The notes: a model not told the origin generated them from the sequence alone. A stretch of DNA of 64,000 nt from a bacterium (GCA_965221655.1 OZ244906.1:2608009-2672008), one strand, 5' to 3'; shown: positions 15,468-40,595, counted from the first letter of the stretch. Made by a program: numbers and translations.

Positions 15468-15564
15468 TGGCGGGAACGCGTGGGAGTCGAACCCACCGAC
15501 GAAGTGATTAGCCCCGTCCACTGGATTTGAAGTCCAGGCGGCACACCGGCACCGATGCGCTCCC
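15468..15564 (-). tRNA. selC: tRNA-Sec (selenocysteine tRNA), anticodon UCA
   Basis: The minus-strand sequence GGGAGCGCATCGGTGCCGGTGTGCCGCCTGGACTTCAAATCCAGTGGACGGGGCTAATCACTTCGTCGGTGGGTTCGACTCCCACGCGTTCCCGCCA is 97 nt. It has an 8-bp acceptor stem (GGGAGCGC/GCGTTCCC), a CUUCAAA anticodon loop with anticodon UCA, a long variable arm, a 5-bp T stem with loop TTCGACT, and an encoded CCA. The CTGGACTTCAAATCCAG and GGTTCGACTCC blocks are nearly identical to E. coli selC. Confidence 0.85.
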
Positions 15565-20737: not shown

Positions 20738-21913
20738 TCAGGAGGCGTTGCACGTGAGAAGCGCTGCCATCTTCCGCAGGCCGATGGCCTCTATGCCGCT
20801 TGCCGCGGGGTAGTGCTCCTCGCTCACATGGACGAGAAAGGCGCGCTCGGGCTCTATATCCTCGAGAGCGCTGTAGAAGCCCCTCGCGGGGGCGGCAGAG
20901 AGACTCCGCTTGATCTCCACGGCCCACGGCCCGCTCGTCCCGGGAATCTCGAGCACCAGGTCGATCTCCGCTCCTCCCGCCGTGCGGTAGAAGCTCGCCC
21001 GGGTGCGAGGGGGGGCGACGGCGAGCAGGTTCTCGATTACGAAGCCCTCCCAGCTTGCGCCGACCACCGGATGACCCGCCAGTGCGTCGTAGTTCCCCAC
21101 GCCGAGCAGGGCGTGGAGGAGGCCGCTGTCGCGCACGTATACCTTGGGCGACTTGACGAGCCGCTTTTTCACGTTCGCGTGGAAGGGCGGCAGCCGCCGG
21201 GCGAGGAGGAGGCCTACCAGCAGATCAACGTATCGCGTCGCCGTCGGAGCTCTCATGGAGAGATTCGCGGCAAGCTTCGATGCGTTGAGAATCCCGCCCT
21301 GGTAGTGGGCCAACATGGTCCAGAACCGATCCAGCGTCTCCGCCGGTATGCGCGGACCCAACTGCGGAACGTCGCGCTCGAGATAGGTGCGAATGAAATT
21401 GCGCCGAAAGGCGAGGCTGTCGTCGTTCTCGGCCAGGAAACTGTCCGGAAAGCCGCCGCGCACCCATAGGTTCGTCATGTCGCGAGCGTCGAGAGCTGCC
21501 TCTCCTGCGTCGAAGGGGTTGAGCTCCACGAACTCTATGCGCCCGGCGAGGGTCTCGCCCGACTGCCGCAGCAAATCGGGCGAAGCCGACCCCAGAATCA
21601 GGAAGCGACCCCTGCCCTTTCCCTGCCTTCTCCCCCGGTCGATGAGGCCGCGTAACTCCTGGAACAACTCCGGCACGCGGTGAATCTCGTCGAGGATAAC
21701 GAGACGGTCCGCAAACTCCTCGAGATACAGGGCGGGCTCGACGAGCTTGTTCCGGTCCGCACGGGACTCGAGGTCCAGATAGATTGCATTGGTGCTCTTG
21801 GCGATCTCCAGAGCGAGCGTTGTCTTGCCGACCTGGCGCGGACCGAGCAGGGCGACGGCGGCTTGGCGGCCGAGCGCATCGCGTACGTTTTTATGTGCGC
21901 GTCGAGTAATCAT
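20738..21913 (-). CDS. AAA+ ATPase with a DUF4143 C-terminal domain
   Basis: Walker A GPRQVGKTT, Walker B LVILDEIH, then a C-terminal region typical of the widespread ATP-binding protein / DUF4143 family. Confidence 0.75.
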   Translation of the reverse strand: MITRRAHKNVRDALGRQAAVALLGPRQVGKTTLALEIAKSTNAIYLDLESRADRNKLVEPALYLEEFADRLVILDEIHRVPELFQELRGLIDRGRRQGKGRGRFLILGSASPDLLRQSGETLAGRIEFVELNPFDAGEAALDARDMTNLWVRGGFPDSFLAENDDSLAFRRNFIRTYLERDVPQLGPRIPAETLDRFWTMLAHYQGGILNASKLAANLSMRAPTATRYVDLLVGLLLARRLPPFHANVKKRLVKSPKVYVRDSGLLHALLGVGNYDALAGHPVVGASWEGFVIENLLAVAPPRTRASFYRTAGGAEIDLVLEIPGTSGPWAVEIKRSLSAAPARGFYSALEDIEPERAFLVHVSEEHYPAASGIEAIGLRKMAALLTCNAS

Positions 21914-24973: not shown

Positions 24974-25939
24974 ATGCCGGATTTGGACTTGACGGCCGCA
25001 TTCGGGGATTACGACAGAACCAACGTTCTCAAGATGGGCTCGGTGCGGCCGCAGGGCGTGAACCTCCGGGTGCTCTCCCTGCCGCCATCGGAGATATTTT
25101 TCCGTATGTGCAGATACCAAGAGTTCGACCTCTCGGAAATGTCCATGGGAGCGCACATGTTTCTGCTCGGTGCAGGCGAGAGCCCCTTCGTGGGGATGCC
25201 CGCTTTTCCGAGCCGTGTCTTTCGCCACTCCATGGTCTACGCCAACACGGACGCAGGCGTGGAAGAGGTCGCAGACCTCAACGGCAAGCGCATAGCGATT
25301 CGCGAGTGGGGGATGACGGCGGTCGTGTGGATAGTGGGCATTCTGGCCGAGGAGTACGGCCTGGAGGTCGACTCCGTGGACTGGGTGGCGGCCATCGAGC
25401 CGCGCGTGCCGATACCGATGCCCGCAGGGGCGCGCATCCGCTACATGAAGCCCGGCCAGACGATATCGAACATGCTCGAATCCGGCGAGGTGGACGGCGT
25501 GCTCATCCATCAGGTGCCCGCTTGCTTCGCCGCAGGCTCCCCGCGCGTCAAGCGCCTCTTCCCGGACTACAAGGCCGCCGAGATCGCCTATTACGAAAGA
25601 ACGGGCATTCACCCCATGATGCACTGCGTCGTGCTGCGGCGCGACGTGTATGAGCGCAATCCCTGGGCGCTCGGGTCGGTCTACGAGGCCATGTGCGCGG
25701 CACGCGAGCAAACGCTCGAGGCACTTTCGGACAACGGCGCGCTCTCGGCCATGATTCCGTTTCTGCCGGCGGCCGTCGACGAAACCCGCGAGATATTCGG
25801 TCCGGATTTCTGGCCCTACGGCGTGGAGGCGAACCGCAAAGCACTCGAGAAGCTCCTCTCCTACGCCCATGCGCAGGGTCTTACGCCCGCGTTGCTGGAA
25901 GTAGATGACCTCTTCGGCGCAAGCGTGTTGGACACCTAG
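24974..25939 (+). CDS. 4,5-dihydroxyphthalate decarboxylase-like protein (NMT1/THI5-like periplasmic-binding fold, no signal peptide)
   Basis: N-terminal GDYDRT...G.V.P.G pattern and a length of about 320 aa, as in the PhtD-like family. Confidence 0.55.
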   Translation: MPDLDLTAAFGDYDRTNVLKMGSVRPQGVNLRVLSLPPSEIFFRMCRYQEFDLSEMSMGAHMFLLGAGESPFVGMPAFPSRVFRHSMVYANTDAGVEEVADLNGKRIAIREWGMTAVVWIVGILAEEYGLEVDSVDWVAAIEPRVPIPMPAGARIRYMKPGQTISNMLESGEVDGVLIHQVPACFAAGSPRVKRLFPDYKAAEIAYYERTGIHPMMHCVVLRRDVYERNPWALGSVYEAMCAAREQTLEALSDNGALSAMIPFLPAAVDETREIFGPDFWPYGVEANRKALEKLLSYAHAQGLTPALLEVDDLFGASVLDT

Positions 25940-26014: not shown

Positions 26015-29000
26015 ATGGAAACTCCAATGGCGTCGGCTCCCAAGACCTTGCTTGCCGCTCCTTTTCATCATTTGGAGCCGCTCCTGGCCGCGCGGGTGCG
26101 GCGGCTCGGCGGGGGAGACCCCCTGGCGCACCGCCGCGTCGTCGTCATCTCGAACCGGCTGCGCGATCACGTTCAGAGGGTGCTCGCCCGCGCGGGCGGT
26201 TTCGCCGGGGTGTCGGTTCTGGCGATGCTCGATCTCGCGCGTGAGGTGGCAGACACCCCCGTCGGCAGTCTCGCGTCGATGTCCCCGGTGGTCGCCGAGG
26301 TGCTGGCGGAGCAAGTACTCGAAGACGCACGGGGGGAGCTGGCCTTTTTTCGCTCCGCCGCACGGGGCTACGGAAGAAGCCTCTACGCCACGCTGACGGA
26401 CCTGAGCGAGGCGAACCTCTCGCCCGACGCCTTGGAGAAATTAGCGCGCGACACGTCGGGTGCGGACGCAGCGAGGTGTGCGGATCTGGCGCTTCTCGCA
26501 CGGCGTTTCGAGGGTGCGATGTTCGCGCGAAATGCCTGCGACGGCCCTCTCCTGTTCCGGATGGCGTGCGAGGAGGCCGAAGCCGCTCCTCCGTGCGTGC
26601 CCACCATCTTCTACGGTTTTGCGGAGATGAACGCCCTGCAGTGCAGGCTGGTGGCGGCGGTGAGCCGCAGGGCGGAGGTCCATGCCCTGGTGCCTGCTCG
26701 GCCCGAGGCGCCCGCCTGCGCGCACGCTGTGCCGCTGCTCGAGCGGTTTCAGGAGATGGGCTTCGTGCGTGAACAAGTGCGGGATTGCGAGGCGCGGCCG
26801 CTCTCCGCAGTGGCGGACGCCTTGTTCTCGCGCGGTATGCGGGCCGAACCGCCGCCCGAGGGTGCGCTGCGCATCGTCTTGACCTCCTCCCCGGGCCGGG
26901 AGGCGCGCGAGGTGTGTCGGGAGATGTTCGCGGCCAGAGCCGAGGCGAAAGGGGCGGACGCTCTATGCGTGTTGACGACCGACGGGAATCGCTACCAGAC
27001 CCTGTTCGAGGAGACGTGCGCGGTGCTGGACGCTCCGTGCCGCACCGAGGAGCCGGGGGCGCTATCCGCAGCGCCTGCGGGGCGTCTGTTTCTCTTGATG
27101 CTTGATTTGAAAGCGAGGGGCTACCCGCGTGCTGGGTTGATGCGCTTTCTGGGCGAGGGTGGCTTCGCGCGCTCAGCGACGTTTCGGGAGATGACGCGCG
27201 CGCATGGGCTGGAAAACTTGGCCGAAGGCTCGCTCCTTGCCTCCCGGTGGGAGTTTTTCTCGAGAGAATTGCCTTACGTGCGTGGCCGCGCCGCCTGGCT
27301 TGCCGCGTTGTCCTCGGCATGTGGCGAGTTGCAAGAAGAAGACGAGGAATATCCGGTTGCGTATTCGCTCGCCGTGGCGCTGCCCGAGGTTTTCGGGCTG
27401 CTTGAGAAAATACCCGAGCACGCCGCACCCTCTGTGTTCGCCGGCGCGGCGGCGGAGGCCTTTGGGGCGACTACTTGCGACGTGCAGGGCAGCAAGCAAG
27501 TCGAAGAACTCCTCTTCTCCCTCGTGCATTTGGACGACATTCTGGCCGAGGTGACGCACGAGGAGTTTTGCGCGTTGTGCGAGCGGTTTCTCGAGAAGAC
27601 GCCGGTGCGCGACGCAGAGCGGGGGACCGCGCACCTGGCGAGCCTCTCCTCCATGCAGGGTGCGCGCGGGTTTTCCTTCGACACTGTCGCCGTGGCGGGT
27701 ATGACGGAGGGCGTGTTTCCTCCCCGGGGGGCGGAGGATCCCCTCCTGCCCGACGCCCTGCGCGAGGAGATAAACCGCGCCGCCGCGCGTGTTTTCGGAG
27801 AGGGGGTGGCGACGCTTCCCCTCAAGAAAATCCGCGAGCGCGAGGCGCGTTTTCAGTTGTGGACGATTCTGCAATCGGTTCGCGGGCGCTTGATTCTCTC
27901 GACGCCGGGTCTGGATGAGGATTCCGCAAGGGAGGATGCGTCTTTCCCGAGTCCTTTTTTCGACTATCTGGCCGAGACGCTCGAGGGGAGTGCGGAGCGT
28001 GTCTTGGCCCCGCTCGCCCGGAGCGCAGGCGCCCCTGCAAACTACGTGCACACGCTCGAGTACGATCTCGCACGCATTGAGGAGCAGATCGAAAAACCGG
28101 AGGCGGGCAGCCTCGCCTACCTGAATGCCTTCCCCGGCTTTGCCCGCAGGCGCGCCGCCCTGGCCGCGCGGTGGCGCGAGGGCGTTCTGACGGCCCATGA
28201 CGGATTGTTCGCCTCTCCCGACCTGCGCGATGCGATTCTGGCGAGAGTCCGCCCGCCCGCCGAAGCGATTGGGGTCACCTCGCTGGAGGGTTTCTTCGGC
28301 TGTCCCTATCGCTTCCTCTACGCCCGCCTCTATCCGCGTATGAAGCGGCGCGAGGAGCCCGCTCCGCCCCTGGCTGCCGATGGTTTGCTTCGGGGCGAAT
28401 TGGCGCACGCTGTTCTGGAGGCGCTTCACCGCAGATTGCTGGAGGCGGGCTGCGGGTTTCAGGAGATGGACGAGTCGACCCTCTCTGGCGCACTTGAGCA
28501 GGCGATTCGCACGGTCATGCACGAGAAAACACAACAGACGGGAGCGCCGCTCCTGCTTTCCCTTCCCTGGGAGGCGCTTGCGGGCGAGTTGCGCCGCCGC
28601 TTGTTGGATTACCTGAAAAGCAGGCGCGCGCAGGGTGCGGGCTGGCAGCCCGTGTGCGTCGAGGAGCGCTTTGGCACAGAGGCCGCGCTGCCCATGTGCA
28701 TACCCCTGGAGGGAGGAGAAATTTCTCTGGCCGGGAAGATAGACTTACTCGAGCGCGGCGCGCAGGGCGCATACCGGGTGGTCGATTTCAAGACCCTAGG
28801 GGGCAAGGGCAACGTTCCGTCAAAGAACGAGCTGCTCAGCGGCGGCGCGCGGCTTCAGCTCCACCTCTACGCGCGGCATCTGCTGCGCGAGGGCCACTTG
28901 CCTGCGGACGCCCGCGTGGGCGGCGTCTACGTCTACCTCACCGAGGAGGGAACCATCGAGCGGGCACGCGCGCATGAGGAGCTCGAGGAGGAGCGGGGGC

Positions 29001-29191
29001 GGGTGGATGCGCTGCTGGGCGATTTTCTCGCACTGGTCGGGGGTGGAATGTTCTTCCCCACTCCTTCGGATGCCTGCAGGTATTGTGACTACAAGGCCCT
29101 GTGCGGCCCCGACAGGAACGAGCGCTTTGAGCGCAAGAAGACCGCCCTTGAGGCGGGCAGACTCATCGCGTTGCGGGAGGCCGCCCCGTGA
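26015..29191 (+). CDS. addB: AddB/RexB-like helicase-nuclease subunit (PD-(D/E)XK nuclease with a C-terminal Fe-S cysteine cluster)
   Basis: 1058 aa. The C-terminal VVDFKT...CRYCDYKALCG matches the AddB nuclease/Fe-S domain. Its stop overlaps the start of the following UvrD-like gene. Confidence 0.75.
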   Translation: METPMASAPKTLLAAPFHHLEPLLAARVRRLGGGDPLAHRRVVVISNRLRDHVQRVLARAGGFAGVSVLAMLDLAREVADTPVGSLASMSPVVAEVLAEQVLEDARGELAFFRSAARGYGRSLYATLTDLSEANLSPDALEKLARDTSGADAARCADLALLARRFEGAMFARNACDGPLLFRMACEEAEAAPPCVPTIFYGFAEMNALQCRLVAAVSRRAEVHALVPARPEAPACAHAVPLLERFQEMGFVREQVRDCEARPLSAVADALFSRGMRAEPPPEGALRIVLTSSPGREAREVCREMFAARAEAKGADALCVLTTDGNRYQTLFEETCAVLDAPCRTEEPGALSAAPAGRLFLLMLDLKARGYPRAGLMRFLGEGGFARSATFREMTRAHGLENLAEGSLLASRWEFFSRELPYVRGRAAWLAALSSACGELQEEDEEYPVAYSLAVALPEVFGLLEKIPEHAAPSVFAGAAAEAFGATTCDVQGSKQVEELLFSLVHLDDILAEVTHEEFCALCERFLEKTPVRDAERGTAHLASLSSMQGARGFSFDTVAVAGMTEGVFPPRGAEDPLLPDALREEINRAAARVFGEGVATLPLKKIREREARFQLWTILQSVRGRLILSTPGLDEDSAREDASFPSPFFDYLAETLEGSAERVLAPLARSAGAPANYVHTLEYDLARIEEQIEKPEAGSLAYLNAFPGFARRRAALAARWREGVLTAHDGLFASPDLRDAILARVRPPAEAIGVTSLEGFFGCPYRFLYARLYPRMKRREEPAPPLAADGLLRGELAHAVLEALHRRLLEAGCGFQEMDESTLSGALEQAIRTVMHEKTQQTGAPLLLSLPWEALAGELRRRLLDYLKSRRAQGAGWQPVCVEERFGTEAALPMCIPLEGGEISLAGKIDLLERGAQGAYRVVDFKTLGGKGNVPSKNELLSGGARLQLHLYARHLLREGHLPADARVGGVYVYLTEEGTIERARAHEELEEERGRVDALLGDFLALVGGGMFFPTPSDACRYCDYKALCGPDRNERFERKKTALEAGRLIALREAAP

Positions 29192-32100
29192 GCGCGCAGC
29201 CTCTCGATCAGAAAGAAAGGGATGAAGCGGCGCACTGGACGCAAGGCCCCGTTCTGGTGGAGGCGGGTGCGGGTACGGGCAAGACCACCCTGCTTGTCGA
29301 AAGGATGCTCCACCTGATTCTGCACGAGCGCGTGCGCATCGACGAGATAGCCGCCATCACCTTCACCAGAAAGGCGGCCCTGGAGCTCAGGGAGCGGGTG
29401 CGCGCCCGCCTGCTCGAGGCCGTCGGGAGCGAAGAAGACGCCGACGTGCGGCGTCGCCTCGAAGATGCGCTGGAGCATTCCGAATCCGCCAGAATTTCCA
29501 CCATTCACGGCTTCGCCCTTCGCATTCTGCGCGAGGCGTCCGTCGAGGCGGGGCTGCGGCCCGACGTGTCCGACGTGGACTTGCTCGCCTACGAGGCGCG
29601 ACGCGACGCGGCCTGGCGCGACTGGTTGGCCGAGAAGATGAGCGGCGCGCACCCGGCGTTGCGTGATTTTCTCGACTTGGGTTTCGGTGCGGCGGACTTG
29701 GAAAAAATCCGCGACGCTTTGCTCGAACTCCCCGAGTTGCGCGCATCCTTCCCGTGCTCAGCGTGGGTTTCGTGCGAGGAAGAAGCGCATACGTCGATTC
29801 GGCGGAACTTTATGGAATGGGAGTCTTTCGCCCAGGCCCATTGCGTCGACGATACGGACAAGGCGCGTTTGGAGGTAGAAGAGCTGAGAGACTGGTTCGA
29901 TACTCTTGCGGACCTTTCCCGGACGCAGATGCTGCGCGCACTCTGGCAGCCGAGCCGGAAACTGAACAAGCGGGTGGGCAGCGCCGCGAAATGGGGGGAG
30001 ACGAAAGAAGAGGGCGGGAAGATCCTGAAAGACTTTCGCGGCATGTATGATTCTATGCTCGGTAGAGCCGCCGCGATTCTGGGTCAGGGGATTCTCGCGG
30101 AGGTAACGGCCCTCGTCGCCGGCTTTGCCGAATCTTTTGAGAACGAAACCCGCGAGGCGGGTCTTTTGTCCTACAGCGACATGCTGTTTCTGGCGACGCG
30201 GCTCGTTCGGGAAAGCCCCGCCGCGCGGACGCGCATACGCCGCGGCATTCAACATTTTCTGGTGGACGAGTTTCAGGATACCGACCCCTTGCAGGTGGAG
30301 TTGATATTCCTGCTGGCCGGAGAGGAGGATGATGCGCTCGACTGGCGCAAGACGCCCCTGGAAGGAGCGAACCTCTTCCTGGTGGGCGACCCCAAGCAGT
30401 CCATCTACCGGTTTCGGCGGGCGGACATCGCTATCTACCACGAGGTGAAAGAGCGCATCGAACGCCTCGAAAGCGGGCGCGTCCTCTACATTCGGGAGAA
30501 TTTTCGCAGTGGTGCGGGTGTGCTCGATTTCGTGAACGCGGTTTTCTCGCGCGCCATCGTTCCCGAACCCGAGATGCAGCCCGCATACGTCGCCCTCGAG
30601 ACCGGCTCGAAAACAAGAGGGGGCGGGACGTTTCTCATCGAGGAGCGAAAAAACGAAGGAGGTGAAGAAGGAGACGTCCCCAAACCCACTGCTGAGGAGC
30701 GGCGCGCGCATGAGGCCGCCCTCCTCGCCGCCTCCATCCGCGAGTTGGTGAACGTGCGCAGGGTGGAGATTCGTGAAGGGGGCGCGCGCCGTCCGGCCCG
30801 TTACGGAGACGTAGCGGTGCTCTTTCGTACGCGCACGGGTTATTCTGCCTTTGAGGCCGCCTTCAGGAGTGCGAACATCCCCTTCGTGTCGGACGGCGGA
30901 CGGGGTTTTTACGAAAAATTCGAGGTCGGTGCGGTCGTCTCCGTCCTTCTGGCGGTGCTGCGGCCCGCCGATCCGCTGGCGTTGGCCGCCGCCCTGCGCT
31001 CCCCGCTATATGGTTTCTCGGACGAGGACATTGCCCGCTATTTCCTCGAAATCGCGGATGTGCCTGCCGACATGGTAGAGGCCGTTCGGGAGATTCATCT
31101 CTTGCACGAGAAAAGAAAGGATGTGAGCCCCCGTGCGCTTTTGGAGGAAATCTATCGCCGCACCGGGGCGTTCGAGCTTTTTCTCGCATCCTCAGAGGGG
31201 GAGCAGCGTGTCGCCAACCTGTGGAAGCTGCTCGACATGGCCTTCGAGTTCGCAGGCGACGGCAAGCGGGGAGCGGACGACTTCGCCGCGCATGTAGAGG
31301 CACACTACGCACTGGGGCGCGAGGCGAAAGAACCCGAGGCGGTACTGAGTACGGACAAGGCCGAGGCCGTGCGTTTCATGACCATCCACCAGGCCAAGGG
31401 ACTGGAATTTCCCGTGGTCGCCATGGCGGATTTGGAAGGGCGCGACTCGTCGGGATCGACCCTCTGGGTCGCTGACCGCACGAAAGAAACAGTCGACCTG
31501 GGTGTGGGGCCGAAAGGAAGGCGCCTGGTTTCCATGGGCTACGAAGATGCGCTCGCGCGGGAGAAAAAATTCGAAAAAGCGGAAAATGTGCGCCTTTGGT
31601 ACGTCGCCGCGACCAGAACGCGGGACTGGCTGCTTTGGCCGAAGGCGAGCCTGGGGTCGTTTTTGGAAAAAGCAGGCGTGAACGCCCAGGAGGGGGAGGC
31701 GATCGCGCGCATGGCTTCTCCTCTTGCAGTTGAACGGGGTGTGTTCGAGCCCGCCCCGCCCATCCTGCGCGTGCGCGATGCGGCTTTTCACGCAAGCGAC
31801 GCAGGCTCCATGTCCGCACCCGGGGACAGGGAAGAACTCGAAGCGAAGCTTGCGCGCCTGAAAAAGCCGGCGCCCTCCCGTGCGTTTCTCGCTCCCAGCA
31901 GCCTGGTCGAGAAGGGGGTGTTCGACGATGCGGGGCCGGAGGCGGCGGCCGACGGAATCCCCCCCGGAAGCGCGGACGTTCACGCGGGGGGGACGGCATT
32001 CGGAAGGCTCGTGCATTCGATTCTCGCGCGCCTGGAGCCGCCGAGCGTCGCACGCCTCGAGATCCTGCGCGCGGAAAGCCTCGCCCACGCCCGGGCTCTG

Positions 32101-32505
32101 GCCCTGGACGAAGAGGACGCGGCGCATGCAATCTCGTTGATTCGTCGCTCCCTGGAGGGGGGCGTACTGCGGCGTGCTGCCGCCGCCACCAGACGCCTGC
32201 GGGAGTTGCCCTTCATGTTCGAGGTGGAAGGCAGGGCTGTTCGGGGGTTCGTCGATTTGGTATGGGAAGAGAAAGGCGCATTGACTATAGTGGATTTCAA
32301 GACCGACCGCGTAACGGCGGAGGGAGCCCCCCGAAGGGCCGAGCTCTATGCAAACCAGGGGGGAGCCTACGCCATGGGGCTGGAGGCGGCGACGGGTCTC
32401 GCCGTGCGGGAACTGGTGTTCGCCTTCCTGCGCCCCGGAGTGGACGTTCCGCTGCCCGTGGACGATCTTCTCAGGCGAAACGTTCGCGCGGCGGCGGCGA
32501 GGTAG
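29188..32505 (+). CDS. addA: AddA/RecB-like UvrD-family helicase with a C-terminal PD-(D/E)XK nuclease
   Basis: Walker A GAGTGKTT, UvrD helicase motifs, and the C-terminal FVDLVWEEKGALTIVDFKTD nuclease motif. 1105 aa. Confidence 0.85.
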   Translation: MSAQPLDQKERDEAAHWTQGPVLVEAGAGTGKTTLLVERMLHLILHERVRIDEIAAITFTRKAALELRERVRARLLEAVGSEEDADVRRRLEDALEHSESARISTIHGFALRILREASVEAGLRPDVSDVDLLAYEARRDAAWRDWLAEKMSGAHPALRDFLDLGFGAADLEKIRDALLELPELRASFPCSAWVSCEEEAHTSIRRNFMEWESFAQAHCVDDTDKARLEVEELRDWFDTLADLSRTQMLRALWQPSRKLNKRVGSAAKWGETKEEGGKILKDFRGMYDSMLGRAAAILGQGILAEVTALVAGFAESFENETREAGLLSYSDMLFLATRLVRESPAARTRIRRGIQHFLVDEFQDTDPLQVELIFLLAGEEDDALDWRKTPLEGANLFLVGDPKQSIYRFRRADIAIYHEVKERIERLESGRVLYIRENFRSGAGVLDFVNAVFSRAIVPEPEMQPAYVALETGSKTRGGGTFLIEERKNEGGEEGDVPKPTAEERRAHEAALLAASIRELVNVRRVEIREGGARRPARYGDVAVLFRTRTGYSAFEAAFRSANIPFVSDGGRGFYEKFEVGAVVSVLLAVLRPADPLALAAALRSPLYGFSDEDIARYFLEIADVPADMVEAVREIHLLHEKRKDVSPRALLEEIYRRTGAFELFLASSEGEQRVANLWKLLDMAFEFAGDGKRGADDFAAHVEAHYALGREAKEPEAVLSTDKAEAVRFMTIHQAKGLEFPVVAMADLEGRDSSGSTLWVADRTKETVDLGVGPKGRRLVSMGYEDALAREKKFEKAENVRLWYVAATRTRDWLLWPKASLGSFLEKAGVNAQEGEAIARMASPLAVERGVFEPAPPILRVRDAAFHASDAGSMSAPGDREELEAKLARLKKPAPSRAFLAPSSLVEKGVFDDAGPEAAADGIPPGSADVHAGGTAFGRLVHSILARLEPPSVARLEILRAESLAHARALALDEEDAAHAISLIRRSLEGGVLRRAAAATRRLRELPFMFEVEGRAVRGFVDLVWEEKGALTIVDFKTDRVTAEGAPRRAELYANQGGAYAMGLEAATGLAVRELVFAFLRPGVDVPLPVDDLLRRNVRAAAAR

Positions 32506-32549
32506 CGCGCGAGGAGTCGCGGCCCATCCGCAAAGAGGAGGAATCGCAA

Positions 32550-33667
32550 TGAGAGTCTCTTCCGTAGAGGTATTTCGCGTCGACATGCCGATGCGGGACT
32601 ACTTCAAGAACGCGAACCACAACCACAACGTCCAGCCTTGCGTCGTCGTGCGGGTGACTTCGGACGACGGCTTCGAGGGCATCGGGGACGTCGAACCCGT
32701 GGCGGGATACTCCGGGTTGGGGCGCGACGACATCGCCGACGCGGTGGAGGAGAAGCTGGCCCCCGCCCTGCTCGGCGCCGACCCCCGGCGTGCACGCGAG
32801 ATCAACAGTCTGATGGACGAAGCCTGCGAGGGCTACGACGGAGGAAAGGGCGCGCTCTCGCTCGCCCTGGCCGATCTGCACGCGAAATCCCTGGGAATAC
32901 CGCTGCACGAATTGCTGGGCGGAGCGGTGCGGGAGGAGGTGTGCTTCAACGCCTGGATCGGCATCAAAGATCCCGAGGAGGCGGCGCGCGAGGCGCGGGG
33001 TTTTCAGAAACGGGGCTGGGTAGCCTGCAAGGTGAAGATGGGCGGAGACGTGGCGTCCGATGCCGCGCGGGTGCTCGCCGTACGGGAGGCGACGGGAAGC
33101 GACTTCGAGATACGCATCGACGCGAACGAATCCTACGCGCGCGTGGAGGATGCCGTGGCTCTCGCACGGGAAGTGGAGGGAGCCGGCATCGAGCATTTCG
33201 AGCAGCCCGTTCCGAGAGCGGATGTGGAGGGGCTGGCCCGGGTGCGTCGTTCCATAAACATTCCCGTCATGGCGGACGAGTGCGTGTTCGGCCCCGAAAG
33301 CCTGCTGCGCATTATCCGCGCCGAGGCCGCCGACGTCGTGAAGCTCAAGATCATGAAGCAAGGCGGCCCCCTGCGGGTGCGGGACATGGCCGCCACGGCG
33401 GAGGCCGCGGGGCTGAAGCTGGTCATCGGCCACGGGTTTGGCCTCTCTCCCTATACGCTGGGCGAGATTCACGTGGCGTCGACCTCGAAAGTCTTTCTCT
33501 CGGCCATAGAATCCGTCGGCCCCGAAAAAATGCTCGACGACGTGGTGGACCGCCCCCTCGACATGAGCACGGGGCGTTGCGCGGTTCCCCGAACTCCCGG
33601 CCTGGGCGTCACCCTCGACGAGGACAAGGTGGACGCCTATTTGTCCCGGCGTCCGGTCAAGGTATGA
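32550..33667 (+). CDS. enolase-superfamily enzyme, muconate-lactonizing-enzyme subgroup (dipeptide epimerase / N-acylamino-acid racemase-like)
   Basis: The RBS AAAGAGGAGG precedes the ATG at 32550. KxK (CKVKMG), DxN (IDANESY), E (EQP), D (MADE) and a second K (KIMKQGG) give the MLE-subgroup catalytic pattern. Confidence 0.85.
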
Positions 33668-33721
33668 GCGCCGCGAAAATCCTCTGGCCCCGCCGCGTGC
33701 GCGGCCTCTAGGGGGTAGGGG

Positions 33722-35170
33722 GTGGTGGTGTTGTCTCTGCTCCAGGAACCGATTTCGTTGGCCCACCAACTGGCGGCAGCGGGTCTGGGTCTTCTCTTCG
33801 CCGCTGTGCTGTCGTGCGTTCTGGGCGGGGTGCTCTTCGTTCTCATCGCGGCGTTTCAATCCCGGCAGAGCATGGACCCGCGCTGGAGCGACCTCTCCAT
33901 GCGTTGTGTGCGCTTCACCCGAGCGGCGGCGTGGGCGTCGCCACTTTTCGGTCTCGCGTTTTGGGTGGTCGTGATGACCGCCTATCCACGCATGATGGAG
34001 CAGCTCCACTCGATTTTCCTCGCACCTGCCTTGTTGGGTCTGGCGGGTTTCGCCTTGGGCTTTTGCTTTCTCGTGCGCTACGAGTCTTGCCTGAGGGCGA
34101 GGGGCGTCGGGGTCAGGTTTCCTTTCACGTGGGGAATCCTGGCCGCTCTGGGCTTTTGGGGTGCGGCAGCGGTTTTGGTGTCGCTCTGCGCTTTTTCGGC
34201 CGACGCGGGTGCGTGGCCGGCGCAGCCCAGCCTCGTGCGGGCGCTTTGGAACCCCACCTTCCCTGCGACGCTTGTGACGTGGGGGGCCGTTTCCGTATCC
34301 GTTTTCGGGGCCTTCGGTCTCGCTTACGCCGGAGCGCAGCGGGATCGCGCGTGGCGCGTCGTCCTGGTGGAGGCGTGGGCCAGGTGGCAGGTGGCGGCCT
34401 CGGCGGTCGGCGTCCTCGGATGGATGTGGTGGGGCGTTTCGCTGCCCGGAGGTGCCAATCGCACGCTGGTGGTTTGGCTGGCGGTGGGGATCTCGGCAAA
34501 AGTGGCCCTTGGCGTGCTCGCCTGGTGGTGGGGCTTGCGCTCGCCCGCGGGTTCCCAACGCCTCAGCGGATGTGTCGTTTCGGTTCTGGCCGTTTTCCTG
34601 GTGGTGGCGTGCGGGTGGGTTCTCGTGGAGGCGCGCGGGAATTTTCAGATTCGCGGCTACGTCTATCGCAACGGGCTGACGATAGAGGAGGTGGAATCCG
34701 CCCGGATATCGGGCTTGTGGCGCCTTGCGCACCCTGACCGCCCTCTTCCGGGGGAAGAGGAAATCGGTGCGTTCAGCTTCCGCGCGCAGTGCATGACTTG
34801 TCATGCCGACTGGGTGGGGGGCCGCACGCCGGGGTTCGGGGTACGGGGGGAGGCGGCGGCGTTTATCGAGCGAATGGGCGAGGCGCATCCCGCCTATCCC
34901 TTGTTTGCGGGCACGAGCGAGGAACGCCACGCCCTGGCGAATTATATAGAGGGGTTGATCGCCAGGTCGGGCCGTGCGCTCGCACCGCCTCCTGCGCCGC
35001 CCTCCGCGCGACGCGAGCCTGAATCGCCCGGAGACGCGGCTCCGGCAAACGTTCCACGCACGAAAGAGCCCGCGCAGGCCGAGGAGCAGCCCGAGACGAA
35101 GCAGACGAACGCCCCCTTGACCCCCTCCGGCGAGACGCCGCGCCCCTCACGGGAGAAGAATGCTCCATGA
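33722..35170 (+). CDS. polytopic membrane protein with a C-terminal c-type cytochrome domain (CxxCH)
   Basis: About 9 predicted hydrophobic helices followed by FRAQCMTCHADWVGG (a haem-binding CxxCH) and a Pro/Ala-rich tail. The start codon is non-ATG. Confidence 0.55.
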   Translation: MVVLSLLQEPISLAHQLAAAGLGLLFAAVLSCVLGGVLFVLIAAFQSRQSMDPRWSDLSMRCVRFTRAAAWASPLFGLAFWVVVMTAYPRMMEQLHSIFLAPALLGLAGFALGFCFLVRYESCLRARGVGVRFPFTWGILAALGFWGAAAVLVSLCAFSADAGAWPAQPSLVRALWNPTFPATLVTWGAVSVSVFGAFGLAYAGAQRDRAWRVVLVEAWARWQVAASAVGVLGWMWWGVSLPGGANRTLVVWLAVGISAKVALGVLAWWWGLRSPAGSQRLSGCVVSVLAVFLVVACGWVLVEARGNFQIRGYVYRNGLTIEEVESARISGLWRLAHPDRPLPGEEEIGAFSFRAQCMTCHADWVGGRTPGFGVRGEAAAFIERMGEAHPAYPLFAGTSEERHALANYIEGLIARSGRALAPPPAPPSARREPESPGDAAPANVPRTKEPAQAEEQPETKQTNAPLTPSGETPRPSREKNAP

Positions 35171-36165
35171 ACGCCCTGATTGCCCAATGGAGCGATTGGC
35201 TCGTCGTCCTGCTCGGTTGCGCCTTGTGGTTTTCGGGAGGCGTATCCGTCGCCATGCCCTGCTATTGTGCGCATCTCGCGTTCCGGGGAGGCCGGCTGCG
35301 CGATGCGGAAGACCTCGCTTGGGCGCGCCGCCTCGCCCGCCTGTGCAGGGAGTGCCTTGCGCCTGTGTTTTTCGTTGGGGCGGCTCTCGTGCTGCTTGCG
35401 TCCGTGGCGCAGCCCGGTGTGTTTTTCGCCTCGTTGCGGCGGCTGGTTCTGCCTCTGGGGGCGTCGTTCGTCCTGCTGGGCGGCTACGTGATTTTGGTGC
35501 GCGCGTATGAAAGAAGCGCCGAGAAGGGGAGCAGACGCCAGTTCGCGCACCTGATGATGATGCCTGCGGGCCTGCTGGCGGCGGCGTGCGCCGGGCTGGT
35601 GTGGCTGTTCGTACTCTGCAATCTCGACCCGACCCTTCTCCAGGGCGAGGGGGCGTGGAGTCTGCGGATGTGGGAGCGCTCCGCCCTTTGGTGGACGGCG
35701 GCGTATTTTTATGCGTCGGCGTTCTTCTCGGGTGGTCTGGTCCTCATGATAGCGGGGGGAAGAGCTTTCCGGTGGGAGAGCCGCGTTCGGGCGTCGAGCG
35801 GCGCACGGCTGGTCGTGCTGGGTGCGGGCTTCTCCTTGTGTTTTCTGGTGATTCAGGTTGCAATGGCGGGCGGCTGGCTTTTGTGGCGAGGTACTGACGT
35901 CGCGCGCGAGATGACCGCGGCGGGGGGGGGAGCATTCGTCGCGTCGTGCGGCGTCGGTTTCCTCTGCGTCGTCTTGCTCTTCGAGACGCTGCTCGGCGCG
36001 CTGCGCCGCAGCGGTAACGCGCACAGGGCGGGGGTGGTCGCCATCGTTTTGCTTCTGGTCCTGGCGGGCTCCGTGGTCTCGGCGCGATGGGCGTTGTGGC
36101 AAGGCGGTTTTCCGCTCACCGGGCCGGAGGCTGTTTCTGCGGAGACGAAAGGGTCGCTTCGTTGA
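35167..36165 (+). CDS. integral membrane protein, unknown function
   Basis: Multiple hydrophobic segments. Its start overlaps the upstream stop (ATGA) and its end overlaps the start of the amidohydrolase gene. Confidence 0.5.
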   Translation: MNALIAQWSDWLVVLLGCALWFSGGVSVAMPCYCAHLAFRGGRLRDAEDLAWARRLARLCRECLAPVFFVGAALVLLASVAQPGVFFASLRRLVLPLGASFVLLGGYVILVRAYERSAEKGSRRQFAHLMMMPAGLLAAACAGLVWLFVLCNLDPTLLQGEGAWSLRMWERSALWWTAAYFYASAFFSGGLVLMIAGGRAFRWESRVRASSGARLVVLGAGFSLCFLVIQVAMAGGWLLWRGTDVAREMTAAGGGAFVASCGVGFLCVVLLFETLLGALRRSGNAHRAGVVAIVLLLVLAGSVVSARWALWQGGFPLTGPEAVSAETKGSLR

Positions 36166-37115
36166 TCATAGACGTTTGCAGTTTCTTGCCCGTGGCGGAG
36201 TCCTACCGGGCCCGCCTACTGGGGTGGGCCTCGATTCCCGGCTATTTCCGCATGTTCTCAAAGGGTCTGAGCGCGTTTTGCGGCGTGGAGGAGGCGGAGT
36301 TTCGCCGCCGGGCGGTGGATACGACGCCCGGGGAAATGCAGGCTTTCGTGGATGAGGTGTCGGCGCGACTCGGCGAGCCGGTTTCTAAGTTCGTGGCGGC
36401 ACTCGACGAGGCGGGCTACGACAAGGCGGTCGTCTTCAGCATCGACCAGCAGAGTACGACCGGCGTTTCGCCCCTTGATCCCGAAGTCCTGGCCGCCGCG
36501 GTGGACGCCTACCCACAGCGTATTGCGGCCTTCCAAGGCGTGGATCCCCACAAGGACGACGCGGCTGCGACGCTTGAGCGCGGTGTGCGCGAACTCGGAC
36601 TGCACGGGACTTTGCTCGTTCCTTTCCTGCACGGCGCACCCGCGGATTCCCCCGTCTACCGGCCCGTCTACCGCAAGTGTCTCGAGCTGGGCGTTCCCGT
36701 GTGGATTCACACCTCGGTCAACTGGGCGCCCGCGCACCCCATGGAGCTCGGAAGGCCTCTGGCTCTCGATCGCCTCTGCGGCGAGATGCCCGATTTGAAG
36801 GTCATCGCGGGCCACGGGGGGTGGCCCTGGGTGCCGGAGATGGTCGCCGCCGCCTGGCGGCACCCCAACCTCTACGTAGACCCCTCCGGCCACCGGTGGA
36901 AGTATTTCACCACGCCCCATTCGGGCTGGGAGATGCTTCTTCACTTCGGAAACTCCACGATACAGGACAAAATTCTGTTCGGAACCGACTGGCCGCTTTT
37001 GCCGATATCGCTCGCGGAGATTCTCGCAGAGGCGCGCGCCCTGCCCCTCAAGCCTTCCGTTATGGAAAAATGGCTGGGCAAGAACGCGGCTCGCTTACTG
37101 GGGGCAGACGAATGA
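36162..37115 (+). CDS. amidohydrolase-2 family protein (ACMSD-like metal-dependent hydrolase/decarboxylase)
   Basis: The IDVCSF start, HxH-like motif and D...H..H metal ligands, and a C-terminal DWPL pattern are typical of PF04909. Start placed at the TTG at 36162. Confidence 0.7.
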   Translation: MIIDVCSFLPVAESYRARLLGWASIPGYFRMFSKGLSAFCGVEEAEFRRRAVDTTPGEMQAFVDEVSARLGEPVSKFVAALDEAGYDKAVVFSIDQQSTTGVSPLDPEVLAAAVDAYPQRIAAFQGVDPHKDDAAATLERGVRELGLHGTLLVPFLHGAPADSPVYRPVYRKCLELGVPVWIHTSVNWAPAHPMELGRPLALDRLCGEMPDLKVIAGHGGWPWVPEMVAAAWRHPNLYVDPSGHRWKYFTTPHSGWEMLLHFGNSTIQDKILFGTDWPLLPISLAEILAEARALPLKPSVMEKWLGKNAARLLGADE

Positions 37116-38320
37116 GGGAAGATACCCACGGCTGGCGTTTCATACTCGCTGGAGCCTGCCTCGTCATTCTGGCCGTTTTCGGTTCGTTGGTGTCGACGAG
37201 TGGCCTCATCGGCTTTATCCGAGAGGATATGGGGCTCTCCTACGGGGCGGGTGGCTTCCTGCTCTCCGCCCCGTTTCCGCTCATCGCCTTCTTCGCGGTG
37301 GCGGGCGGCAGGCTGGTCGACCGACTGGGCGTCAAGAAGATGGTGGCGGCGGGTGTTTTCTTCACCCTGCTGGGCGGCGTGATTCGCTTCTCCAGCGGAG
37401 ACTTCTGGTCGCTTGCAGCGGGCATCGTGCTCGTGGGCGTGGGTACGGGGCTGGTCTTTCCCGCCATACCCAAGGTGGTGGGCACCATCGTCCCCCCTGC
37501 ACACAAGGATTTTGGTTCCGCCATGTATACGGCTTCGGTCATCGCCGGTTCGGGCTTGGGCATCGCCGTCTCGCACTATATGGCGCAGGCCGCGGCGGTT
37601 TTGCCCTCCGCGTGGGGCGGGAGTGTCTGGCGCGGCGGCTACTTGATGTGGGTGCTCGTTTTGGGGCTGGCTTTTCTCGTCTGGTGCAGAAGCGCCCGCT
37701 CGATCCCGGCGCGCGTCGAACCCGAGGGGAGGCCGCCGGCGAGCAACGCGGTCTACCGGCTCATCGCCGTCTGGGCGATCGCTGGTTCCCTGTTCGTCGA
37801 CAACATCGTTTTCTATACCAGCCTCGGCTGGCTGCCCACGGTTCTGACCGACCGGGGCTGGACGCAGGCGAGCGCCGTCGCCATTGTCTCGTGCGTGCCC
37901 TGGCTGGGGCTCGTCGCTTCCCTCACGGCCTACAAGGTGGCTTCCGCACTCGGCGGTGAAAGAAAGACGGTGCTTCTGTGCGGGCTGTGCACGGCCGGTG
38001 CTCTCGCCGCGGCTCCTGCGGGCAATGCGTGGCTCGCGGCGCTGGGGACCGTGATGTTGGGGCTGACCACGAACTACTGGTTTTTGTTCTGCCTGGCCTA
38101 TCCCGCGCAATACGTGGAGGAGGATCAAGTGGGCCAGGCGGCCGGGTTGATTATCGGCATGGGCTATCTGGGCGGCTTCGTAGGTCCCTGGGCAATCGGC
38201 ATGATACGCGATGCGTTCGGCTCCTTCGGACCGGGCTTCTACGCACTGGCGGCCCTTTCGGTGCTGGGGATGTTCTGCGCCCCGTTCTTCGGCAAAAACG
38301 CCGACCCGAACACGAGGTAA
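37112..38320 (+). CDS. MFS transporter
   Basis: 12 predicted TM helices and a G..GRLVDRLG-type MFS motif between TM2 and TM3. Its ATG overlaps the upstream stop. Confidence 0.8.
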   Translation: MREDTHGWRFILAGACLVILAVFGSLVSTSGLIGFIREDMGLSYGAGGFLLSAPFPLIAFFAVAGGRLVDRLGVKKMVAAGVFFTLLGGVIRFSSGDFWSLAAGIVLVGVGTGLVFPAIPKVVGTIVPPAHKDFGSAMYTASVIAGSGLGIAVSHYMAQAAAVLPSAWGGSVWRGGYLMWVLVLGLAFLVWCRSARSIPARVEPEGRPPASNAVYRLIAVWAIAGSLFVDNIVFYTSLGWLPTVLTDRGWTQASAVAIVSCVPWLGLVASLTAYKVASALGGERKTVLLCGLCTAGALAAAPAGNAWLAALGTVMLGLTTNYWFLFCLAYPAQYVEEDQVGQAAGLIIGMGYLGGFVGPWAIGMIRDAFGSFGPGFYALAALSVLGMFCAPFFGKNADPNTR

Positions 38321-38323
38321 AAC

Positions 38324-39568
38324 ATGGCGCAGGCGACGTCGCGGCGCCCCAGGCTCAGACCCCTGGAGGCCGTGCCCACGGACCATGAAGGCCAAACGAT
38401 GCTGATGCTCAGAGACCCCCTGCATCTGAGCGACGCGGTATTGCTCGTCCCCATGCCCCTGGTGCGTGTACTCGAGCGGCTCGACGGGCGCCATACGTTC
38501 ACGGAAATCCGGGAGCGATGCCGCACCCTCCACGATTTCGACGTTCCCGAGGAAGTCTACTGCACGATGGTGGCGCGGCTCGAGGAGGCCCATTTTCTCG
38601 AGGGCGAGGGTTTCGACTCCTGGAGTGCGTCGCTCCAGGAGGCGTTCGTGCGCGCTCCTGTGCGCCCGAGCTTTCTGGCGGAGAAGAGCTACGCGGCGGA
38701 CCCGGCGCGTCTGCGTTCGGCGATTGAGGGATTCTTCACCTCAGCGGATGGCCCCGGATTGCCCCGGCAAGCCTCCGCCGCCCGGACGCTTCGGGGTCTC
38801 ATTGCCCCGCACATCGACTTTCAGCGGGGAGGCTCGACTTTCGCTTGTGCGTACAAGGCGCTCGCCGAGCGGACGGACGCGGACTTGTTCGTCGTCCTGG
38901 GCACGGCGCACGTCCCGATGGCGCACACCTATGTCCTTACGCGAAAGTCTTTCGACACGCCCTTCGGGGTGCTGGAGACGGACGCAGGATTCGTGGAGGC
39001 TCTCGCGGGCGGGCTCGGCGTCGACGCCTTTCGGGACGAATTCGCGCACCGGGCCGAGCACGCAATCGAGTTTCAGGCGGTTTTTCTGCAATATCTTTTC
39101 GCGGGCGTGCGGCCCGTGCGGTTCGTTCCCGTCCTGGTGGGTTCGTTCGGCGAGTTCGTCGCGCGCGGGGAATCTCCCCGTGGAGACGAACAGGTGGAGG
39201 CCTTCGTCTCGGCTCTCAAGGAAACGATGGCGGCCCACCACGCAAAAGGCAAAAAGATTTGCCTGATAGCGAGCGTGGATCTGGCCCACGTCGGCCCCCA
39301 GTTCGGCGACGCGCATCCCGTCGACGCAAAGCGGCTCGAAGAGTTGGCGCAGGCGGACGACGCTTCCCTCCGCGCGGCTTGCCGCGGAGACGCCGAGGCT
39401 TTCTACTGGAGCGTGGCCACGGACGGCGACGCGCGCAAGGTTTGTGGTTTGGCGCCCATCTACACCATGCTGCGCACTTTGGGTGCTTGCGAGGGAGAGG
39501 TGTTGCGCTACACGCAGTGGCCGGACCCGAACGGGGTGGTCACCTTTTGCAGCGCGGTGCTGGTTTGA
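38324..39568 (+). CDS. fusion protein: N-terminal PqqD-like (RiPP recognition element) domain plus MEMO1-family domain (AmmeMemoRadiSam system protein B-like)
   Basis: Residues of about 25-100 (VLLVPMPLVRVLERLDGRHTFTEIRERCRTLHDFDVPEEVYCTMVARLEEAHFLEG) fit the PqqD/RRE pattern. Residues of about 110-414 carry MEMO1 hallmarks (GLIAPHIDFQRGG, DLAHVGPQFGD). No internal stop lies between the two domains. Confidence 0.7.
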   Translation: MAQATSRRPRLRPLEAVPTDHEGQTMLMLRDPLHLSDAVLLVPMPLVRVLERLDGRHTFTEIRERCRTLHDFDVPEEVYCTMVARLEEAHFLEGEGFDSWSASLQEAFVRAPVRPSFLAEKSYAADPARLRSAIEGFFTSADGPGLPRQASAARTLRGLIAPHIDFQRGGSTFACAYKALAERTDADLFVVLGTAHVPMAHTYVLTRKSFDTPFGVLETDAGFVEALAGGLGVDAFRDEFAHRAEHAIEFQAVFLQYLFAGVRPVRFVPVLVGSFGEFVARGESPRGDEQVEAFVSALKETMAAHHAKGKKICLIASVDLAHVGPQFGDAHPVDAKRLEELAQADDASLRAACRGDAEAFYWSVATDGDARKVCGLAPIYTMLRTLGACEGEVLRYTQWPDPNGVVTFCSAVLV

Positions 39569-39611
39569 GAGATTCGCGTGTTCGGGAAATTTTCAAGAGG
39601 AGAATCAGGCG

Positions 39612-40595
39612 TTGCTTTATCTGAGTGAATCCGACGTAAAGAAACTGGTGAGCATGTCCGACGTCATGAGCGTAGTGGACGCATGCTTCAAGGCCCAGGG
39701 GGAGGGCCGCGCCCCCAACCAGCCCAGGCGGCGGGTGTTCGTCCCCAAGGGGACGATGCACGTCATGTTCGGCGGCATGGTCGACGCGGAAGAGAGCTAC
39801 ATGGGTCTCAAGGCCTACACCACGTTTCCGGGAATCGGCGTGCGGTTCGTCTTTTTACTGTGGGATGCCAACACCTCCGAGATGCTCGCACTTATGGAGG
39901 CGAACGTGCAGGGGCAACTGCGGACGGGTGCGGCGAGCGGCGTCGCGGCGCAATACATGGCGCGTGCGGACGCCACGGAGGCAGGCTTGATCGGCACGGG
40001 CTGGCAGGCGCGGGCGCAACTCGAAGCCCTTTGCTGCGCGCGCGATCTGGAGGTCGTGAAGGTGTATAGCCGAAACGCGGAGAAGCGTGAGAAATTCATT
40101 CGCGCAATGCAGGACAGGGTGAGCGCGAAACTCACCCCCGTGGAATCGGCGCGCGATGCGGTGCGGGGTTCGCAAATCGTGTGCACCATCACCACGGCGC
40201 GCGCGCCCGTTTTCGACGGAGCCGACCTCGAGGCGGGAACCACGGTTCTCGCAGCGGGATCGAACCGCGTGACGAATCGCGAGATCGACGACGAAACCTT
40301 CCGCCGGGCGGGCAGAATCGTAACCGACAGCCTCGAGGGAGCCGCCTTTGAGAGTGGCGACCTGGTGGGCGCGGTGCGGGCGAACGCCATCCAGTGGGGC
40401 CAGGTTGCGGAGATCGGGCTCGTGGCGAGCGGTGCCATGCCCGGGCGCGCCTCCGACGAGGAAATCAACGTCTTCCTGAGCCAGGGAGTCGCGATAGAGG
40501 ACGTGGCCCTGGGCGCGGAACTCTACCGCCGCGCCAAGGCGCAGGGCGTCGGCGCGCAACTGCCCGTGGAGGGATTCTTCAAGAGAGCGACCTGA
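39612..40595 (+). CDS. ornithine cyclodeaminase / mu-crystallin family protein
   Basis: OCD_Mu_crystall pattern with the Rossmann motif IGTGWQARAQ. The RBS AGGAGAA precedes a TTG start. Confidence 0.8.
   Translation: MLYLSESDVKKLVSMSDVMSVVDACFKAQGEGRAPNQPRRRVFVPKGTMHVMFGGMVDAEESYMGLKAYTTFPGIGVRFVFLLWDANTSEMLALMEANVQGQLRTGAASGVAAQYMARADATEAGLIGTGWQARAQLEALCCARDLEVVKVYSRNAEKREKFIRAMQDRVSAKLTPVESARDAVRGSQIVCTITTARAPVFDGADLEAGTTVLAAGSNRVTNREIDDETFRRAGRIVTDSLEGAAFESGDLVGAVRANAIQWGQVAEIGLVASGAMPGRASDEEINVFLSQGVAIEDVALGAELYRRAKAQGVGAQLPVEGFFKRAT

Follow-up and report, generated by a model that had tools for sequence, protein, structure and literature searches.

A phylum-spanning RRE–Memo fusion protein family and the lineage-specific gene block around one of its members

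Among the described relatives of the protein considered in this report, human MEMO1 and yeast Mho1 (PF01875; PDB 3bcz, 7kq8, 7l5c) have a fold in which, for MEMO1, residues H49, H81 and C244 are the ligands of redox-active Fe or Cu and D189 and H192 are their neighbors; MEMO1 exhibits no dioxygenase activity on standard substrates, and its primary molecular function is still unknown (PMC11081632). A triad of AMMECR1, a radical-SAM protein and a "ring-opening dioxygenase" has been predicted to carry out RNA base modification (PMC2034487). Recognition elements (RREs) for peptides that are made on the ribosome and modified after translation (RiPPs) include PqqD (PF05402), the lasso-peptide B1 proteins TfuB1 and TbiB1 and the N-terminal domain of PaaA. 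Fusions of RRE and Memo domains were named in one sentence of the 2025 RRE-Finder update (PMC12710340), a paper that offers for them neither a family analysis nor a context, a substrate or a function, and our literature search found no paper linking RREs to MEMO1 function. Here we describe one such fusion, the product of the sixth of seven consecutive genes (G1 to G7, Table 1) in a 64,000-nt stretch of bacterial DNA of ~64% GC (GCA_965221655.1, OZ244906.1:2608009-2672008), which we refer to as the window. The original prediction for this locus regarded the seven genes as a candidate operon for a product pathway of a type not known to be described; the fusion, a still uncharacterized class, had in fact been named in print, and what we describe below of its distribution, its contexts and the conservation of its metal site goes beyond PMC12710340.

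Compared with these systems, the C-terminal 300 residues of G6 share the fold of MEMO1 and Mho1 and carry the His/His/Cys triad with its neighboring Asp and His, but G6 is ~20% identical to MEMO1 and has an extra 110-aa N-terminal domain of RRE fold. It scores above the model cut-off for AmmeMemoRadiSam protein B (TIGR04336), the name used for it in public annotation, yet unlike the AmmeMemoRadiSam triad (TIGR04335/04336/04337) it has no adjacent AMMECR1 or partner radical-SAM gene. The RREs listed above are its best structural matches on the N-terminal side and share the predicted βββ-ααα order; in contrast to them, the N-domain of G6 lacks an above-threshold hidden Markov model (HMM) match, a cognate precursor and a RiPP-type neighborhood, and RRE–Memo proteins are very highly conserved across phyla and flanked by housekeeping genes. 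Protein-modifying enzymes that also have an RRE-like winged-helix domain, namely the ribosomal oxygenases MINA53/NO66, Rickettsia PKMT2 and Rv2067c, differ from it in that their catalytic domains are of the JmjC or methyltransferase type and their winged-helix position is different; homology to them is not established.

We read the gene block as two or more modules that lie side by side in one lineage and not as one pathway, a reading to which we assign a probability of roughly 0.55. According to this reading, G6 would be the stand-alone orthologue of a large, phylum-spanning RRE–Memo family, G1 and G7 would be an older pair of enzymes, and G2 to G5, which lie together with G6 between them, would be clade-specific additions: a membrane c-type cytochrome and its partner, an amidohydrolase without the HxH motif and a transporter of the MFS type. 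The case for a seven-gene operon centered on the fusion is weak.

Fold, metal site and distribution of the RRE–Memo protein

G6 matches the Pfam Memo model (PF01875) at 4e-35 and 121.8 bits (gathering threshold 27) over residues 119-401. Against TIGR04336, for which the cut-off is 26, it scores 101.8 bits. An alignment of 25 full-length relatives consists of a conserved N-terminal region of ~110 aa followed by the Memo domain. An AlphaFold2 (AF2) model of the full-length protein (pLDDT 93.4, pTM 0.88) finds its best Foldseek match in MEMO1 (3bcz/7kq8; E 1e-16, TM score 0.80-0.82), with LigB-type dioxygenases as a second tier at a TM score of ~0.55. The proposal that this 414-aa protein combines an RRE-fold domain with a complete Memo domain is supported. 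No signal peptide and no transmembrane segment were found in it.

For the N-domain, no Pfam or NCBIfam model gave a match above threshold; PF05402 did not match and TIGR04248 reached E 0.044. Similarity to RREs was sub-threshold but recurrent among 38 family members (PaaA-like_N matches 10 and PqqD 6 of them, at best 0.0014), and a profile of the N-domain searched against the PDB returned PaaA at 0.034 and PqqD at 0.3-1.5. Because the sequence searches yielded only sub-threshold similarity, the RRE question was decided by fold. The predicted N-domain model (pLDDT 93.8) has strands at residues 8-14, 17-23 and 32-36 and helices at 37-43, 52-63 and 69-81, that is, the canonical βββ-ααα order used as a criterion in PMC12710340, with an extra helix at 88-103, and it is structurally similar to experimentally solved RREs. 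The predicted likeness of the N-terminus to a PqqD-type RRE consequently stands at the level of the fold, for which the evidence is strong, and falls short of thresholds at the level of sequence.

In the HMM alignment, G6 His163, His196 and Cys374 correspond to H49, H81 and C244, which bind the metal in MEMO1 (His196 being placed by its GxxH motif, where the alignment is out of register by one residue), and Asp319 and His322 to D189 and H192; none of the five varies among 25 members of the family. The second-tier resemblance to LigB-type dioxygenases might be taken as a sign of an aromatic or catechol ring-cleavage cluster, in which G6 would open the ring, the MLE-type enzyme G1 lactonize the product, the Amidohydro_2 protein G4 hydrolyze or decarboxylate it and the OCD-type enzyme G7 reduce a cyclic imine. 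The muconate/chloromuconate cycloisomerase subfamily is indeed the top NCBIfam match of G1, and Amidohydro_2 includes lactonases and decarboxylases of ring-cleavage pathways. Such a cluster is nonetheless highly improbable: the metal site of G6 is the His/His/Cys site of MEMO1 and not a 2-His-1-carboxylate site, MEMO1 itself is inactive as a dioxygenase on standard substrates (PMC11081632), the family occurs in strict anaerobes, the catabolism of small molecules has no use for an RRE domain, the score of G1 is 228 bits against a subfamily cut-off of 335, G4 lacks the HxH motif, and the genes do not co-occur elsewhere.

A total of 2,750 homologues of G6 were found, the best 120 of which are nearly all ~410 aa long and cover almost the full query. 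Searches with the N-domain profile, counted as clusters at 50% identity, matched 1,991 representatives at E<=1e-3, and at E<=1e-10 the number was 1,160; nearly every match is a Memo fusion of 400-440 aa or a metagenomic fragment. In a scan that took a single genome for each species, a relative was detected in at least 555 species genomes. The family spans at least 10 phyla, strict anaerobes included, with members in Nitrospinota, Tectomicrobia, Methylomirabilota/Rokubacteria, Acidobacteriota, Planctomycetota (Brocadiales, Scalindua) and Thermodesulfobacteriota (Syntrophaceae, Syntrophorhabdus) as well as in Binatia, Dormibacterota, Gemmatimonadota, Sumerlaeota, Dadabacteria and Abyssobacteria. 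The identity between RRE–Memo proteins of different phyla (38-48%) is as high as that of addA inside the clade to which the window belongs. Two proteins of other architecture came up with the N-domain profile: P0144 (986 aa), in which TPR repeats and not a Memo domain come after the N-domain, and P0268 (2076 aa), in which 15 separate stretches match profile positions 42-88 and HxlR and PKMT winged-helix models also match, which gives it the look of a giant chain of winged-helix repeats.

When the proteins of the window were compared by tblastn with 85 loci that encode RRE–Memo proteins, the neighbor genes of G6 were present only in one Nitrospinota/Tectomicrobia-like clade, at 15 loci with a Memo protein at least 59% identical to G6, to which a metagenome scan added two more; at 69 loci of other lineages, none of the window neighbors of G6 was present by the same test. 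De novo clustering of flanking ORFs (open reading frames) revealed a distinct context that is conserved in Rokubacteria, Methylomirabilota, Acidobacteria, Dormibacterota and Binatia and is made up of TIGR02757/DUF2400, RmuC, a 100-aa protein, an ArgE/DapE-family deacylase, the RRE–Memo protein and an overlapping DUF1285-like gene. The window itself contains no homologue of the M20 deacylase, DUF1285-like, RmuC, DUF2400 or Cpn10-like genes. At 21 other loci, the 40 immediate neighbors fall into 77 Pfam families, none of which occurs at more than two loci. Outside the clade, RRE–Memo is flanked by housekeeping genes, and the tailoring and transport genes that a peptide-product pathway was expected to show beside the RRE enzyme across taxa do not accompany it. 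Since the fusion family lacks co-traveling neighbors, the block in the window looks like a lineage-specific mixture of modules.

The partners of the AmmeMemoRadiSam system had been reported as absent from this locus, and our scans agree. Neither an AMMECR1 motif nor a radical-SAM motif of the PFL-activase type occurs anywhere in the window, and the only radical-SAM protein found by Pfam, in a scan that covered the window from 12.8 kb onward, is MoaA. Similarly, 84 of the 85 loci are devoid of the AMMECR1 motif and of a partner radical-SAM gene, and a Pfam scan of the 40 flanking genes of the 21 loci just mentioned found AMMECR1 in one. The sole exception to the motif scan is L041, a metagenome-assembled genome (MAG) of a deltaproteobacterium in which a canonical 279-aa Memo protein (229 bits against Pfam Memo), AMMECR1 and RRE–Memo are encoded in tandem (8405-11251). 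The presence there of a canonical Memo beside RRE–Memo indicates that the two are distinct paralogues. Genes for RadC and an oligopeptide-type ABC binding protein follow RRE–Memo in L041.

Likewise, no precursor peptide gene had been reported inside the block, and its intergenic gaps of at most 54 nt leave no room for one. The search for small ORFs adjoining RRE–Memo in other lineages turned up none that is conserved past a single family or lineage, an example of the restricted kind, at Syntrophaceae-type loci, being a helical protein of 79 aa encoded on the other strand. The 100-aa ORF of the Rokubacteria was considered as a precursor and set aside, as it looks GroES-like by eye; it has no NCBIfam match.

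From these observations we infer that the RRE-fold domain of G6 may capture a peptide segment on which the Memo domain, with its MEMO1-type His/His/Cys metal site, would act, and that the substrate would be encoded elsewhere in the genome, probably as a conserved cellular peptide or protein and not as a hypervariable RiPP precursor. Ring cleavage dependent on O2 is an improbable chemistry for it; the occurrence of the family in strict anaerobes would speak against an obligatory need for O2. Extended to the family as a whole, this would make RRE–Memo proteins widespread peptide-guided metalloenzymes in which the RRE-fold domain docks a conserved peptide or protein at an Fe or Cu site for O2-independent modification, an idea that we put forward tentatively and hold to be doubtful in its full form. 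In the clade of the window, it might also be coupled to a dedicated pair of membrane proteins that includes a c-type cytochrome.

Composition of the gene block in its clade

Gene models derived from an ORF listing and the inspection of start codons, with which public gene calls on the same and related contigs agree, confirm the predicted arrangement of seven tightly packed genes on the plus strand directly after addA, except that the block starts at 32549 and not at 32550. The junctions from addA/G1 to G6/G7 measure +43, +54, -4, -4, -4, +3 and +43 nt. A promoter scan yielded one promoter-like site, against 1.4 expected, and terminator-like sites that are mostly intragenic. The order of the seven genes is conserved in ~15 genomes in which addA is 45-61% identical; the anticipated conservation of gene order in relatives therefore holds for one clade and not for other lineages. 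The same synteny also takes in addBA upstream and HIBADH, rpmG, rpmB and DUF169 downstream.

Scanning metagenomes with G1 brought up a locus, L091, in which orthologues of G1 (55% identical) and G7 (62% identical) are adjacent, OCD starting 37-39 nt after MLE with nothing between them, and from which both addBA and G2-G6 are absent. Positions 4342-15101 of L091 and 17369-42985 of the window are syntenic over ~10 genes with 43-70% protein identity, and their common backbone reads 2-thiouracil-desulfurase/DUF1722, a 594-aa 3HCDH, a TPP enzyme, a PBP-like protein, MLE, OCD, L28 and DUF169. The PBP-like gene, whose product is 326 aa in L091, lies directly upstream of MLE-OCD there and thus belongs to the older backbone. 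The difference in GC content between L091 (33%) and the window (64%) is unusually large for a gene order so well conserved. Relative to this backbone, the lineage of the window has two extra co-directional blocks, addBA and G2-G6. The function of addBA is clearly a separate one, and the tight packing of genes in one direction at this locus is therefore no evidence for a shared pathway.

Individual clade members have, moreover, lost different subsets of the seven genes. In L002, a 2.9-Mb relative, the four soluble enzymes are intact at 71-83% identity, but G2 has been deleted, G3 survives as a frameshifted remnant and G5 has shrunk to 67 codons (remnants at 8202-8779 and 9794-9985); in L013, G4, G5 and G7 are missing and G2, G3 and G6 are kept. 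At a further locus, L098, a distant MLE (29% identical) has an Amidohydro_2-like neighbor.

The original prediction envisaged a single operon pathway in which RRE–Memo recognizes a leader peptide and cooperates with the epimerase, the hydrolase, the cyclodeaminase, the membrane redox proteins and the exporter to make a new peptide- or amino-acid-derived product. Co-directional packing with overlaps, the persistence of the gene order in ~15 genomes despite an addA identity of only 45-61%, an RRE fold that the structural model supports, and the plausibility of an epimerase, a hydrolase and a transporter for tailoring and export would all be in keeping with this. We nevertheless think that one pathway centered on the fusion is a rather unlikely explanation, as the neighbors never accompany RRE–Memo at the 69 loci of other lineages, clade synteny extends equally to addBA, rpmB and DUF169, MLE and OCD stand adjacent in L091 without the remaining genes, L002 and L013 lost different genes, relatives of G4 occur in other settings, no precursor ORF or space for one was found in the block, G1 lacks the DxD motif of dipeptide epimerases, and membership of G5 in the MFS does not fix its direction of transport.

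A narrower alternative is that G2-G6 were inserted between MLE and OCD as one functional unit, whose G2/G3 cytochrome pair would exchange electrons with the Memo metal site and whose G4 and G5 products would process and move the same substrate. The 4-nt overlaps from G2 to G5 and the 3-nt gap before G6, the presence or absence of the five genes as a block relative to L091, the retention of the CxxCH motif of G2 in 10/10 orthologues and the binding of redox-active Fe or Cu by MEMO1 (PMC11081632) all favor such a unit; it is set back by the intact G4 and G6 beside decayed G2, G3 and G5 in L002, by the retention of G2, G3 and G6 without G4 and G5 in L013, by the absence of all these partners from the wider RRE–Memo family, and by the lack in G6 of a signal peptide or transmembrane segment to bring it close to a periplasmic heme domain. 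On balance we regard this arrangement as unlikely, if somewhat less so than a pathway of all seven genes.

Several points weigh against our own preference for a juxtaposition of modules. The start/stop overlaps and the short gap before G6 suggest co-translation of G2-G6, which moreover form a single indel unit in comparison with L091, so that G6 could work with G2-G5 in this clade. G1, G4, G6 and G7 are under strong purifying selection and occur together in most clade members, and the staying together of soluble enzymes is also expected of a real pathway. L091, for which the comparison covers ~15 kb of a 45-kb contig, may have lost genes by genome streamlining, in which case there would have been no gain in the lineage of the window. 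Finally, RRE-fold domains also occur in enzymes in which their role is structural, and no candidate peptide ligand was found for the N-domain of G6.

Products of the remaining genes and other features of the window

The domain families predicted for the seven genes agree with our Pfam, NCBIfam, transmembrane and CxxCH analyses. G1 matches Pfam MR_MLE_N/C at 1.5e-50 and has the full catalytic set of KxK, Asp/Glu/Asp and second Lys, but it remains below every NCBIfam equivalog cut-off. Its best PDB matches are 2p88 (2e-53), YkfB (7e-51) and MLE (~1e-45), and its nearest relatives are a Bacillus cereus protein of the N-succinyl-amino-acid-racemase type, YkfB and muconate cycloisomerases. Epimerases of L-Ala-D/L-Glu dipeptides have a DxD motif at the end of β8; G1 was rejected as one of them, since the "fDfD" of YkfB aligns with "iEsv" in G1 and DxD is absent. 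G7 matches Pfam OCD_Mu_crystall at 4e-56, and its best PDB match is the Δ1-pyrroline-2-carboxylate (Pyr2C) reductase 6t3e (4e-51), followed by archaeal AlaDH.

The pairing of an MLE-family with an OCD-family enzyme recalls cis-3-hydroxy-L-proline dehydratase and Pyr2C reductase, the more so as the best solved relative of G7 is a Pyr2C reductase and the G1 and G7 orthologues of L091 are adjacent. Unlike that pair, G1 and G7 are far below the equivalog cut-offs (145 of 500 bits for G1 against NF043002, 155 of 322 for G7 against NF004793), and N-succinyl-amino-acid racemase is equally close to G1. The most economical conclusion from their sequences is that G1, as a proton-abstracting enzyme of the MLE type, and G7, as an NAD(P)-dependent imine reductase or cyclodeaminase of the OCD type, would together convert an amino- or imino-acid derivative, possibly through racemization or dehydration to a cyclic ketimine and subsequent reduction.

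G2 has seven predicted transmembrane helices and a single CxxCH (CMTCH, residues 357-361, nt 34790-34804) with a weak Cytochrome_CBB3 match (E 0.005); it has no Pfam family and no PDB relative, and its 41 homologues are all from the clade of the window. The low-complexity tail that follows its heme domain (34997-35170), rich in Pro, Glu and Ala, varies in length, which accounts for orthologue lengths from 482 to ~700 aa. G3, for which no Pfam match or PDB relative was found, is always paired with G2, whose stop its start overlaps by 4 nt; the idea that the two are paralogues was rejected on comparison. G4 matches Pfam Amidohydro_2 at 8e-43 and has as its best PDB match and only solved relative 3irs, a structure with no assigned function. 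Together with 114 relatives, it has IDV[C/S]S[F/T] in place of the N-terminal HxH metal ligands and conserves H183, H218 and D269. As this subfamily lacks the N-terminal HxH, the earlier description of G4 as ACMSD-like was overstated. Relatives of G4 outside the clade, at 46-48% identity, are located beside penicillin amidase and PaaK-like ligase genes or beside CoA-transferases. G5 matches Pfam MFS_1 at 2e-30 and is weakly CynX/NimT-like.

Calls for G3, G4 and G5 are split or truncated in L001 (6844-9997, corresponding to 35167-38320 of the window with matches of 91%, 99% and 81%), a 7x-coverage ENA assembly apparently of the same organism; these are probably assembly frameshifts and not biology. 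Elsewhere in the window (Table 1), a tRNA-Sec gene implies that the organism uses selenoproteins, and a DUF4143/AAA_14 gene is probably a local insertion, because the 3HCDH and TPP-enzyme genes on either side of it are adjacent in L091.

Table 1. Positions of the genes, domains and other features in the window
Feature	Position	Strand	Description
tRNA-Sec	15468-15564	-	anticodon TCA; Rfam RF01852, 74.8 bits, and ARAGORN
DUF4143/AAA_14	20738-21913	-	ATPase gene between 3HCDH and TPP-enzyme genes
PBP-like	24974-25939	+	SsuA/NMT1-like cytoplasmic protein, 321 aa; weak TIGR01728 match; 63% identical to L091 8984-9961
addB	26015-29191	+	upstream of addA
addA	29188-32505	+	directly before G1
G1	32549-33667	+	MLE-subgroup enolase-superfamily enzyme, 372 aa
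G2	33722-35170	+	clade-restricted membrane protein, ~7 transmembrane helices, one c-type heme motif, Pro/Glu-rich tail
G3	35167-36165	+	polytopic membrane protein, ~9 transmembrane helices
G4	36162-37115	+	TTG start; Amidohydro_2 TIM-barrel protein, 317 aa, uncharacterized subfamily
G5	37112-38320	+	MFS transporter, 402 aa
G6	38324-39568	+	RRE–Memo fusion protein, 414 aa
G6 residues 8-113	38345-38662	+	RRE-like winged-helix domain (predicted), β1-β2-β3-α1-α2-α3 plus α4
G6 residues 114-414	38663-39565	+	Memo domain
G7	39612-40595	+	TTG start, good ribosome-binding site; OCD/mu-crystallin NAD(P)-dependent enzyme, 327 aa
MoeA, MoeA, MoaA	50239-54622		tandem MoeA paralogues then MoaA; second MoeA fused to C-terminal PBP-like domain

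Meaning for the Memo family and for genome mining

Two cautions for genome mining follow from this locus: an RRE fold in a tightly packed run of co-directional genes is not in itself the sign of a biosynthetic cluster, and the label "AmmeMemoRadiSam system protein B" is misleading for RRE–Memo proteins, because the system is absent. That one bacterial subfamily of Memo carries its own peptide-recognition domain suggests peptides or proteins as the substrates of Memo, and the RRE domain is a tractable handle for finding them. If RRE–Memo proteins are peptide-guided metalloenzymes, the Memo family, which has been linked to cancer and metal homeostasis but whose biochemical role is unresolved from bacteria to humans, would gain its first defined class of substrates and with it a biochemical function.

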